From assembly GCA_902383995.1 (NCBI GenBank), contig CABLZX010000007.1:39702-103701 (forward strand): a stretch of DNA of 64,000 bases, in the 5' to 3' direction. This DNA comes from an uncultured Brachyspira sp. GTDB lineage: Bacteria > Cyanobacteriota > Vampirovibrionia > Gastranaerophilales > Gastranaerophilaceae. Shown here in pieces: positions 27,001 to 30,000 of the stretch. A program made the position numbers. The stretch's first letter is position 1. Each line of letters starts with the position of its first letter.

Positions 27001-30000
27001 CACAAAAGTAAAAGATATTTATAACGGGTTAAATTATCTGATATTTCAGAGAAATCATTAGAATAAAGATTTCGTGATAAAATTTTTATATGAACAAAAG
27101 AGGAAATAAGAATGGATAAATTTTATTTAACAACTGCAATTGATTATGTAAACGGCGCTCCGCATATCGGACACGCTTATGAAAAAATTCTAACAGATAT
27201 TATAGCAAGACACTTTTCTCAAAGAACAGACGATATGTTCTTTTTAACTGGTACAGATGAACATGGTATAAAAATTCAAAAAACAGCTGCTGCAAAAGGT
27301 ATGACACCTAAAGAATTGTGTGATGAAAACGCACAAAAATTCAAAGATGCATGGAAAGCTCTGGATATTGATTATTCTAAATTCATCAGAACTACTGATG
27401 ATTATCACGAAAAAGCAGTTCAGAAAATCTTTAAAAAATTGGTAGAAAAAGGTGATATTTATAAACATTCATACGAAGGTTTGTACTGCACCGGCTGTGA
27501 ATGCTTCCTTAATCCGAAAGATTTGACAGAAGACGGACTTTGTCCGGACCATTTGAAAAAGCCGGAAGTTGTAAGCGAAGAAAATTATTTCTTCAAATTA
27601 ACAAAGTACAAAGATGCAATTATCAAACATATTAAAGATAATCCTGATTTCATAATCCCGTCTTTCAGAGCAAACGAAGTTCTAAACCAGCTTGAAGACA
27701 TTCAGGACATCTCTGTATCAAGAGCTAAATCCAATGTTCAATGGGGCATTGATGTTTTAGATGATGAAGAACAATCTATCTACGTTTGGATTGATGCTTT
27801 GTCAAACTATATTACAGCACTCGGCTATGATACTGAAAACAATTCAGAAGATTTTAACAAATACTGGCCGGCAGATGTTCAGGTTATTGGAAAAGATATT
27901 CTGAAATTCCACAGCATATACTGGCCGGCATTTTTGATGGCGCTGGATTTGCCTCTGCCAAAACATATACTGGCACACGGCTGGATTACAATTGATGAAA
28001 CCAAAATGTCTAAATCCCTCGGCAACGTAATATCTCCAACATCGGTTTTAGAAAATTTTGAACTCAAAGAATCGGATGCTTTAAGATACTATATGGCAAC
28101 CTCAGCTCCTTGCGGACGTGACGGAAACTATTCTGATGAAGATTTCAAAGAAAAGGTTAACGCCCACCTCGCAAACAGTATGGGCAACTTATTAAACAGA
28201 ACTCTCTCAATGCTTGTAAAATACTTTGACGGAGTTATTCAGCCTAAAAACTTTGCGCTTGTTGAAGGTGCAAATGAACTTTTGAAAAAAGCACTCGGCA
28301 CTGTGAAAGTTGTTGAAAACCATTTCAATCACTTTGAAGTAGCAGAAGCTGCACAGGAAATTATCGGAATTGTTGATATGACTAACAAATTTGTAACCGA
28401 TAATGCACCATGGACTTTGGCAAAAGAAGGCAGGATGGATGAATGCGCACAGGTTCTTACTGTTGTTCTTGAAGTTATGTGCATTGTATCCGCTCTTATT
28501 TATCCTTACTGCCCTAATATTGCTCAGGCAATGGCAAAACAATTATCATTCAATTTGAGCGTGAAATTAGACGATTTAACAGCCGATAATATCCAAGAAG
28601 GTAAACTTATATCAAAAGAAGATATAACCCCTGTATTCCTTCGTGTGGACTCGGAATTGGCTGACAAAACAGCTAAGAAATAATGCGTAGGATTTGAAGG
28701 GTTGAAAATTTCAAAAAATACGTTATAATAATAGAAAGGGCGCGTGGATTGCCGTCCACACATTAAATGCCCCGTTAGATGATGTAAAGCACTATAATTA
28801 TTAGCAATAATAAGAATAGTGCTTTTTCGCTTACAGCGAATATCATTTTTTTTCACCTCCTTTCCATGAACTCTCTTTCTGCAGTAATGTTGTTTCACTC
28901 AGAAGGCTAAAGGGCATACCCTCACTGTTAAAATAAGAGGATACACCCTTTATGTCAATATTTATCTGAAATATTATTAATTATTTTATCTAATCTGAAC
29001 AGGCATAATCAGGCAGACAAAATCTTCTTCGCAGTTTGGTCTTAAAACAGTTGCTGACAATGGAGTATTTAAACCAATATTAACTTCATCGCAGTCAATA
29101 TTTTTTAAAGCTTCAAGAACATATTTATAGTTAAACGCAATAGTCAAATCCTCTGCTGTGTAATTAATAGACATTTCTTCTTCAGACTTACCGGAATCCG
29201 GCGTATCAGCCATTAATTTCAATGTATTTTGAGAAAATTCCATTTTAACAATACTTGTTTTCTCGTTAACCATAATTGATACACGTTCTAATGCTGAAAT
29301 AAGCTGAGAAACGTTTACTGTAGCAACTTTCGGGCTTTCTGCCGGTATAAGCTGGTTATATTTAGGGAACTGGCCTTCAAGCAGTCTTGAAATAGTTGTT
29401 GTTTTTTCTGATTTGATTATAATTTTTGTTTTTTCTGTGTAAACTTTTACAGAATCTTCTTCAATAAATGAAGACATTTTAATAAATTCATTCAAAGTTT
29501 TTGAAGGAATAATTAATTGTTTAGATTTATTTTCTTTATTCTTGATAGTTTCACGAACTCTGGCAAGTCTGTTTCCATCTGTAGAAGCAATCTCCAGTAC
29601 TTCGCCCTGAATATCAAGAACAATACCTGACAAAAGGTTGCTTGTTTCATAGCTTGCAGCAGCAAAACCTGCCTGACGCACAGCTTTTGTCAAAGGTTTT
29701 ACTTCAATTTCAAAACTTTCATCTTCATTTGTTTCGATATTATACACTTCAGGAGGAAATTCTGATGCTGAAATACCTATAATATCAAATTTTGAATTTT
29801 GGCATGTAATATTTACAGAAGTAGAACCTTCAGGCATTTCAAATGTTATAAGTTTATCGCCAAGTTTGGAAACTATCTCGTTGAGCGTTTTTGAAGGCAA
29901 CGTAATTTTTCCTTCTTCTTCAACCTGCGCATCAACTTCTGCAATTACAGTCAAATCAAGATCAGTTGCTACAAGTTTTATTGTACTGTTATTGATAGTT

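Follow-up and report, generated by a model that had tools for sequence, protein, structure and literature searches.

The DNA considered here, referred to as the window, is a stretch of 64,000 nucleotides (nt) of contig CABLZX010000007.1 with a G+C content of about 35%. Between the stop codon of metG (28683, plus strand) and that of dnaN (28986, minus strand) lies a gap of 302 nt that contains a compact set of signals on both strands, termed module B. On the minus strand, the module carries a predicted gene for a very short hydrophobic peptide; on the plus strand, a convergent promoter is predicted to drive an antisense RNA against it, a layout that resembles type I systems of toxin and antitoxin (TA). 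A paralogous cassette, module A, is present in the same window, and related cassettes in other sequences, C to G, complete a family of seven. The elements of module B, including its open reading frames (ORFs) and its Shine-Dalgarno (SD) and anti-SD sequences, are as follows.

28930..28958, minus strand: promoter of the peptide (toxin-like) mRNA, TTGACA-17-TATTTT, 10/12 consensus, predicted start at about 28923
28733..28923, minus strand: predicted toxin-like mRNA of about 190 nt, bounded by promoter and terminator
Leader of this mRNA, minus strand: GAGGGTATGCCCTTTAGCC, then GGAAAGGAGGTG
28910..28923, minus strand: 5ʹ-terminal stem-loop GAGGG-UAUG-CCCUU, found in leader-only and full-length folds and lying in a block conserved between A and B
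28901..28907, minus strand: anti-SD sequence GCCUUCU, which pairs with the SD sequence
28854..28862, minus strand: SD sequence AAGGAGGUG (DNA AAGGAGGTG), 9 nt from GGAGG to AUG
28775..28846, minus strand: mini-ORF of 23 codons plus stop, MIFAVSEKALFLLLLIIIVLYII, ATG at 28846 and stop at 28775
28826..28840, either strand: hairpin over codons 3 to 7, TTCGC-TGTAA-GCGAA on the mRNA strand and TTCGCTTACAGCGAA on the plus strand
28741..28762, minus strand: mRNA terminator hairpin, followed by the tail CCCUUUCUAUUAUUAU (28740-28725)
28702..28729, plus strand: antisense RNA promoter, TTGAAA-16-TATAAT, 11/12 consensus, predicted start at about 28735
28735..28828, plus strand: predicted antisense (antitoxin-like) RNA, about 95 nt long and bounded by promoter and terminator
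28786..28827, plus strand: intrinsic terminator of the antisense RNA, AAAGCACTAT...ATAGTGCTTT plus T5, inside the mini-ORF
28841..28853, plus strand: tail of TATCA plus T8 that follows the second hairpin, absent in members D and F
28843..28917, minus strand: upstream ORF of 24 codons, MPFSLLSETTLLQKESSWKGGEKK, ending in ATGA and probably no gene
28524..28898, minus strand: ORF of 124 amino acids (aa), an annotation artefact

An earlier note on this DNA, made by reading the letters alone, had proposed the promoters, leader, mini-ORF and hairpins of this arrangement, and all of the elements it listed are present on both strands where it had placed them. Promoter-like sites are dense in the region, with 11 counted against 4.6 ± 2.1 in shuffled sequences, and the antisense promoter begins only 19 nt past the metG stop codon. 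The predicted mRNA folds at -58 kcal/mol (z = -4.5) and the predicted antisense RNA at z = -4.9, stabilities that 0 of 200 shuffles equalled in either case. In the full-length fold of the mRNA, the 5ʹ sequence GAGGGUAUGCCCUUUAG pairs with the region after the stop codon and with the 3ʹ end, so that the 5ʹ-terminal stem-loop has an alternative partner there. The predicted antisense RNA is complementary to the 3ʹ untranslated region (3ʹUTR), the stop codon and roughly codons 7 to 23 of the mRNA, and would extend to 28853, a length of about 119 nt, if its terminator were read through.

One structural property shared by the family concerns the start of the mRNA. In 7/7 members, a 5ʹ end of the form (A/G)GG(G/A)(U/A)A is preceded at a distance of 7-8 nt by the -10 box, and an anti-SD sequence about 17-25 nt from this end pairs with the SD sequence. 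The SD core is unpaired with a probability of 0.00-0.14 across the seven, compared with 0.27-0.48 when the upstream sequence is shuffled (in the module B leader, a mean of 0.05 vs 0.47). Both sides of the helix change together, as CCCC/GGGG in C and CCACC/GGUGG in F, and RNAalifold run on the seven members recovers the helix with compensatory changes; it is 95% paired, a level equalled by 11 of 500 shuffles, and controls slid along the alignment reach 47-74%. In the minimum free energy structures of six of the seven members, the extreme 5ʹ end additionally closes onto the 3ʹ end.

Another property is the opposite strand preference of two hairpins. The in-ORF hairpin, whose T-rich tail follows it on the plus strand, folds more stably as antisense than as mRNA in 7/7 members, and in five of them G.U pairs on the antisense strand correspond to A.C mismatches on the mRNA strand. 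The 3ʹUTR hairpin is, conversely, more stable on the mRNA strand in every member, by 1.2-9.8 kcal/mol, with 13 G.U pairs in total on this strand. Because a G.U pair on one strand is an A.C mismatch on the other, this asymmetry provides a test that requires sequence only, and it suggests that each strand has a functional terminator of its own; a pair of convergent transcripts with an overlap of about 95 nt is thus predicted. For the 3ʹ domain, a covariance model (CM) gives the mRNA strand of the D copy 66 bits and its opposite strand 17.5 bits, and the helix contains seven pairs changed on both sides, with 0 of 500 shuffles as well paired. A search with this CM missed B and C and found no extra copies. 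MAFFT and RNAalifold, applied to the whole antisense RNA and the 3ʹ domain, misalign the diverged stems, and for this reason the analysis relies here on folds of the individual sequences together with a small CM.

The assignment of these hairpins differs in part from that in the earlier note, which had taken a hairpin reading TTCGCT-TAC-AGCGAA on the plus strand, with T8 (28846-28853) over the start codon, for part of the antisense unit. This hairpin, the one over codons 3 to 7, and its T8 do exist, but the antisense terminator conserved in the family is the AAAGCACTAT/ATAGTGCTTT hairpin (stem at 28786-28825) with T5. The codon 3-7 hairpin is retained in B, D and F; in D and F it reads TTCTG...CAGAA, through two compensatory pairs and a change of the serine codon from AGC to TCA, and is followed by no T-run, the plus-strand T8 being confined to B. 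It may act instead on the mRNA just past the start codon, and in B, TATCA plus T8 could form a second terminator specific to this member, lengthening the antisense RNA over the start codon. A GGGC...GCCC stem lies on the plus strand as had been described, and the minus strand also holds a terminator-like hairpin (28762..28741), which the note had given as a plus-strand stem only.

The family was assembled by two routes. Scanning metagenomes for the promoter block of the plus strand gave 12 loci, seven of which carry the cassette: two orthologs of B, C on sequences L014 and L021, D on L017 and L020, and E on L023. A profile built from A to E retrieved F, 3.7 kb away from D on L017, and G, 2 kb away from E on L023, which are an independent check on the members found through the promoter. 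The antisense promoter block is identical in A, B, C, D and E; F and G have at the same position a different antisense promoter, TTGACA-17-AATAAT. Members A to G come from the species of the window, a congener and more distant gut relatives, and they lie beside genes of housekeeping function (metG, dnaN, der, PFK, an MBOAT, a NUDIX hydrolase and a methyltransferase). The predicted peptides form one subgroup of B, D and F, in which D and F are the closest relatives of B, and a looser one of A, C, E and G.

Member A: MNRKIIKSALVVLDTLLKIIIIYL
Member B: MIFAVSEKALFLLLLIIIVLYII
Member C: MSRIIKDTLMLLGYLLQIISIFI
Member D: MIFCISEKALWLIFMIIIALLTLFK
Member E: MTVSLLETIIKALVILELFARIVLALLTK
Member F: (V)EFCITEKALWLIFWIIIALKSLK
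Member G: MVRQIIMLLLAFAVAVIASKL

As the seven members share one list of parts, the earlier description of module B as a type I TA-like cassette paralogous to module A appears sound. On this evidence, module B is probably a copy of a previously undescribed family of such cassettes, and function as a TA pair, if unproven, is plausible and somewhat favoured.

Several observations argue that the mini-ORF is translated. It is open in 7/7 members over 21-29 codons, the chance of which is 0.09-0.17 for each in composition shuffles. The grand average of hydropathy (GRAVY) of the seven peptides is 1.2-2.6, values reached by at most 0.025 of the open shuffles, and that of the B peptide (2.60) lies above every one. 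A strong SD sequence precedes each ORF, its GGAGG lying 7-9 nt ahead of the start in A and B, and the N-terminal motif MIFx(V/I)SEKAL(F/W)L is retained in B, D and F through synonymous changes and the AGC to TCA serine switch. No peptide matches a toxin family of Pfam, NCBIfam or PADLOC at E <= 10.

In F, an insertion of about 100 nt parts the SD sequence from the ORF. This GC-rich segment (L017:4196-4295) is closed by a GGAUUUUCGG/CCGAAUAAUCC stem, has no Rfam match, folds with a z of only -1.7 and is absent from the other loci examined; perhaps it is a short element whose insertion disrupts F, or else a spacer with a structure of its own.

The coding evidence bears directly on a non-coding explanation, under which the hairpins would be terminators of the convergent metG (plus strand) and dnaN (minus strand), perhaps accompanied by a plus-strand small RNA (sRNA), and the mini-ORF would be fortuitous. 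The positions of the cassettes lend this some credit: those of A, B, C and E follow the stop codon of a gene running into them, metG and dnaN have no other terminator, and constraint on the hairpins alone could account for some of the ORF conservation. A fortuitous ORF, however, is hard to reconcile with seven open frames out of seven, strong SD sequences at 7-9 nt and hydrophobicity far over that of shuffles, or with an N-terminal motif conserved across synonymous and serine-codon-switch changes. Dedicated promoters are, moreover, conserved on both strands, the anti-SD sequence covaries with the SD sequence, and D and G do not lie between convergent genes. We consider the non-coding explanation improbable.

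The other cassette of the window, module A, consists of the following parts.

436..700, minus strand: module A, the paralogous cassette, nearly invariant in six further strains
439-466, plus strand: antisense promoter
About 667, minus strand: 5ʹ end of the mRNA
610-602, minus strand: SD sequence
596..522, minus strand: ORF, MNRKIIKSALVVLDTLLKIIIIYL
547-578, plus strand: antisense terminator
513..479, minus strand: mRNA terminator

Its predicted RNAs also fold stably (z = -6.4 for the mRNA and -4.4 for the antisense RNA). Formal alignment of A with B gives 40 nt at 85% identity over the plus-strand promoter (E = 1.8e-5 for the whole window), 22 nt at 86% over the 5ʹ end and leader of the minus-strand RNA, and an AT-rich 18-mer. 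With these three collinear blocks, the likeness goes beyond low complexity, the outcome that had been named beforehand as fatal to the comparison. The 32-nt promoter block has exactly two exact occurrences in 64 kb (437-468 and 28700-28731), where 0 are expected, and profile searches of the window found no third copy of the cassette. Since their peptides belong to different subgroups, A and B are taken to be old paralogs, with no recent duplication between them. Between the mRNA promoter of module A and the NUDIX gene, the stretch at 690-860 of the window is free of ORFs and relatively GC-rich; it contains the hairpin AAAAGCAGCCCTTCGCTGCTT and is conserved in six strains.

Outside the window, the cassettes are scattered. 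The congener represented by L017, whose der protein is 84% identical, has its cassettes at other loci, and no cassette lies upstream of der in the window; the distribution is therefore patchy. Scanning the genome collection with the leader and SD pattern returned the same species (L012) only, plus three chance matches. Viral contig scans gave no leader match and two promoter matches, both unrelated phage promoters; comparing module B with plasmids and phages by blastn yielded only a 41-nt AT-rich match, and tblastn of the peptides against plasmids gave none.

Multiple intergenic copies at differing loci in related species, one of which (F) holds about 100 nt of foreign insertion, are what might be expected of a non-autonomous mobile element, a repeat like a miniature inverted-repeat transposable element whose internal features are incidental. 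The copies, however, have diverged strongly in sequence and kept their structure and coding capacity, a pattern contrary to that of recent transposition, and reading of their ends revealed no terminal inverted repeats or target duplications, no formal scan having been made. We regard this explanation as very improbable; mobility would in any case be compatible with TA function.

How a TA pair of this kind would work can be proposed from the sequence and from better-known systems. A sigma-70-type promoter on the minus strand would produce the mRNA of about 190 nt, which encodes a hydrophobic peptide of 23 residues predicted to form a single helix. Once transcribed, the anti-SD sequence in the 5ʹ part of this RNA would pair with the SD sequence, and the extreme 5ʹ end with the 3ʹ end; together, SD/anti-SD pairing and 5ʹ-3ʹ closure would leave the full-length mRNA translationally inert. 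The stronger, convergent plus-strand promoter would meanwhile supply the antisense RNA of about 95 nt, ended by its own terminator within the ORF and complementary throughout to the mRNA's 3ʹ half. On the model of bsrG/SR4 and txpA/RatA, the two RNAs would form a duplex, probably initiated by loop-loop contacts of mirror-image hairpins, and this duplex would lead to degradation by an enzyme of the RNase III type, to firmer occlusion of the SD sequence, or to both. If the antisense RNA fell or the mRNA were processed, the peptide would be made, insert into the membrane and arrest growth. Where the flanking genes are convergent, the cassette may also serve as a terminator for each of them.

Several points weigh against this interpretation. 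Except perhaps in B, by read-through, the SD sequence lies outside the antisense RNA, and any repression would therefore have to work indirectly. The starts and ends of transcription are predictions, and the cassettes have no homology to known toxin or antitoxin families in Rfam, Pfam, NCBIfam or PADLOC. In C, D and E, conservation of the promoter motif is by construction, because the motif was used to find them, and unrelated RNAs in related organisms as well as phages use the same promoter consensus. The statistics of covariation are weak, because there are just seven distinct and related sequences, and the CM-based alignment mixes two registers, a slide by +1 being still 75% paired. Finally, one allele (L004, 8 contigs; L004:4380-4400, orthologous to window 28700-28745) has an antisense promoter in which the -10 box TATAAT has become TAGGTT and the -35 box TTAAAA, while its ORF is still open. 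A 7-nt deletion removes the mRNA terminator tail of this allele, which has a GTG start and the peptide changes A4P and Y21S. Either the L004 copy is decaying or the antisense RNA is non-essential.

The persistence of an allele with a damaged antisense promoter would also suit an alternative in which the peptide is no toxin. The cassette would then be a small membrane-protein gene under antisense regulation, its product perhaps serving a membrane complex as an accessory or regulatory subunit, with the antisense RNA simply tuning its level. The evidence for coding, for SD sequestration and for two terminators fits this equally well, and NCBIfam shows sub-threshold similarities to TatA (E = 0.063) and to a symporter small accessory protein (E = 0.062). 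A subunit, however, would not be expected to occur in multiple stand-alone copies at unrelated loci beside housekeeping genes (metG/dnaN, MBOAT/NUDIX, der and PFK) with no conserved partner gene, nor to diverge as freely as these peptides do in everything except hydrophobicity. A double translational lock, combined with a 3ʹ-overlapping antisense RNA that has the stronger promoter, is a hallmark of toxin control. The alternative is unlikely on this balance, though it deserves to be taken seriously.

Returning to the TA interpretation, the cassettes can be compared with described type I systems. The database T1TAdb describes toxin mRNAs of 150-400 nt, peptides of 20-60 aa and antisense RNAs of 60-200 nt, together with SD/anti-SD pairing, a 5ʹ stem-loop, a 3ʹ terminator and a 5ʹ-3ʹ interaction (PMC8594479). 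Module B falls within these ranges, with a predicted mRNA of about 190 nt, a peptide of 23 aa (GRAVY 2.6) and a predicted cis-encoded antisense RNA of about 95 nt that has a promoter and a terminator to itself and is perfectly complementary; in silico, SD/anti-SD pairing is found in 7/7 members and 5ʹ-3ʹ closure in 6/7, along with a 5ʹ hairpin. A coupled leader ORF of the hok/Sok type is lacking. Rfam at its gathering score gave no match in the window, L014, L017 or L023, and at E <= 10 only noise over both modules, where the Sok, Sib, RatA, SR4-type, RNAII, IstR, OhsC and OrzO families, among others, were all unmatched.

The closest architecture is that of bsrG/SR4 and txpA/RatA, a likeness of organization only. 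In bsrG/SR4, the antitoxin overlaps the toxin mRNA at its 3ʹ end and has the stronger promoter, and the SD sequence is held in a helix (PMC3834814). The likeness to both pairs lies in the convergent genes with their own terminators, an antisense RNA directed against the 3ʹ part of the toxin mRNA, an antitoxin promoter nearer to consensus, an SD sequence within an mRNA helix and a hydrophobic peptide. The differences are that neither peptide nor RNA is similar in sequence, that the cassettes lie between housekeeping genes and not on prophages, and that their products are smaller: an mRNA of about 190 nt vs about 294 nt and an antisense RNA of about 95 nt vs about 180 nt, and a peptide of 21-29 aa vs the 38 aa of BsrG. 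TxpA comprises 59 aa.

With hok/Sok and aapA1/IsoA1, the cassettes share a sequestered SD sequence and an mRNA closed by predicted 5ʹ-3ʹ pairing, a closure that implies, as far as the folding model goes, an inert primary transcript in need of processing or refolding. In those systems, however, the antisense RNA targets the 5ʹ region, whereas in the cassettes it overlaps the 3ʹ half; hok moreover has a conserved leader ORF (mok), which has no conserved counterpart in the cassettes, and there is no homology. The products of Ibs/Sib, ShoB/OhsC and ZorO/OrzO resemble the cassette peptides in being almost purely hydrophobic and about 19-29 aa long, but the NCBIfam and Pfam families of Ibs, ShoB and ZorO do not match them at E <= 10. 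Sib, furthermore, covers the entire ibs ORF, OhsC and OrzO run divergently and have the 5ʹUTR as their pairing partner, and the organisms are unrelated. The published sequences of ZorO and ShoB seem superficially similar to the A/E peptides, and this is offered as a lead only.

Among cyanobacteria, msoT1/msoA1 of Microcystis aeruginosa is the only candidate type I TA system, and type I systems had otherwise been described in Proteobacteria, Firmicutes and Tenericutes only (PMC12390103, 2025). As in the cassettes, its cis antisense RNA is predicted to bind where the coding region ends and in the 3ʹUTR, but MsoT1 has 63 aa, two predicted helices and an isoelectric point of 11, with no similarity to peptides of 21-29 aa (PMC12390103). 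Both would fall within one wider phylum if the organism of the window is a member of Vampirovibrionia. Its representative genome is 'Brachyspira sp. CAG:484' (L012), and GTDB puts CAG-484 in Gastranaerophilales, a non-photosynthetic group that is sister to Cyanobacteria, an assignment to be taken as provisional; CAG:700 is a true Brachyspira. A literature search found no paper linking type I TA to Melainabacteria. Taken together, these comparisons suggest that the cassettes are a new family of a known kind. A bolder proposal, a serious possibility that falls somewhat short of being the likelier outcome, is that they are the founding members of a lineage-specific type I TA family from an uncultured human-gut lineage, set apart by a two-lock mRNA, by positional mobility between congeners and by doubling as a bidirectional terminator amid housekeeping genes.

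If this proposal is true, it would extend type I TA systems to a group in which none had been described. Such systems are missed by annotation because their genes are tiny, and at module B the gene caller gave instead a spurious 124-aa ORF; the annotation is hereby corrected. The earlier note had already suspected this ORF, with good reason: it has no match in Pfam, NCBIfam or PADLOC, runs antisense to the 3ʹ end of metG, crosses the module out of frame and is called in some strains only. The family also offers testable small peptides, predicted to be membrane-active, and compact RNA control modules, and its seven diverged sequences are a basis for a CM with which to scan metagenome-assembled genomes. 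The strand-asymmetry test, by which functional RNA structure can be inferred on both strands of overlapping loci, may serve elsewhere.

The upstream ORF, which was suggested to be translationally coupled to the mini-ORF, fared less well. It is present in B and ends in ATGA, but A, C, F and G lack it, and the only short ORFs of D and E are different and unrelated. Its ATG falls within the loop formed by the 5ʹ hairpin, 1 nt past GAGGGU, and no proper SD sequence precedes it. Being neither conserved nor provided with such a sequence, it leaves coupling unsupported.

The promoter block that marks members A to E also occurs apart from the cassette. In related organisms (L013:6523-6640 and L019:9700-9805), the block GTTGAAA..AAAAATACGTTATAAT is the promoter of another RNA, about 75 nt long, which ends in the canonical terminator GGAAAGGGGC-GAAGA-GCCCCTTTC plus a T-run. 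No convincing peptide gene lies on the opposite strand there, and this RNA is a candidate sRNA. These loci indicate that the block is a strong promoter typical of the lineage and no marker of the cassette. In four phage-like contigs (L007:9757-9784, L008:9771-9798, L016:6041-6069 and L022:11879-11907), the promoter consensus GTTGAAAAA..AAAAATACGATATAAT directly follows a CCCCCTTTAATTAGGGGG terminator and drives an unrelated structured RNA or leader.

Upstream of dnaN, about 700 nt (window 30108-30806) contain no ORF of at least 70 aa, and dnaA does not adjoin. DnaA boxes (TTWTCCACA) form no cluster near dnaN, the two in the whole window both lying elsewhere. The dnaN protein of the window is encoded on hundreds of human-gut metagenome contigs. 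Across seven strains, module B is 97% identical, and its mini-ORF stays open despite amino-acid changes and a change of the start from ATG to GTG; variation among the strains, in A as in B, is too small for a test of selection. One ortholog of module B, on a 1.3-kb metagenome contig, contains the Nextera adapter AGATGTGTATAAGAGACAG (L018:~600-625) and is an assembly chimera.

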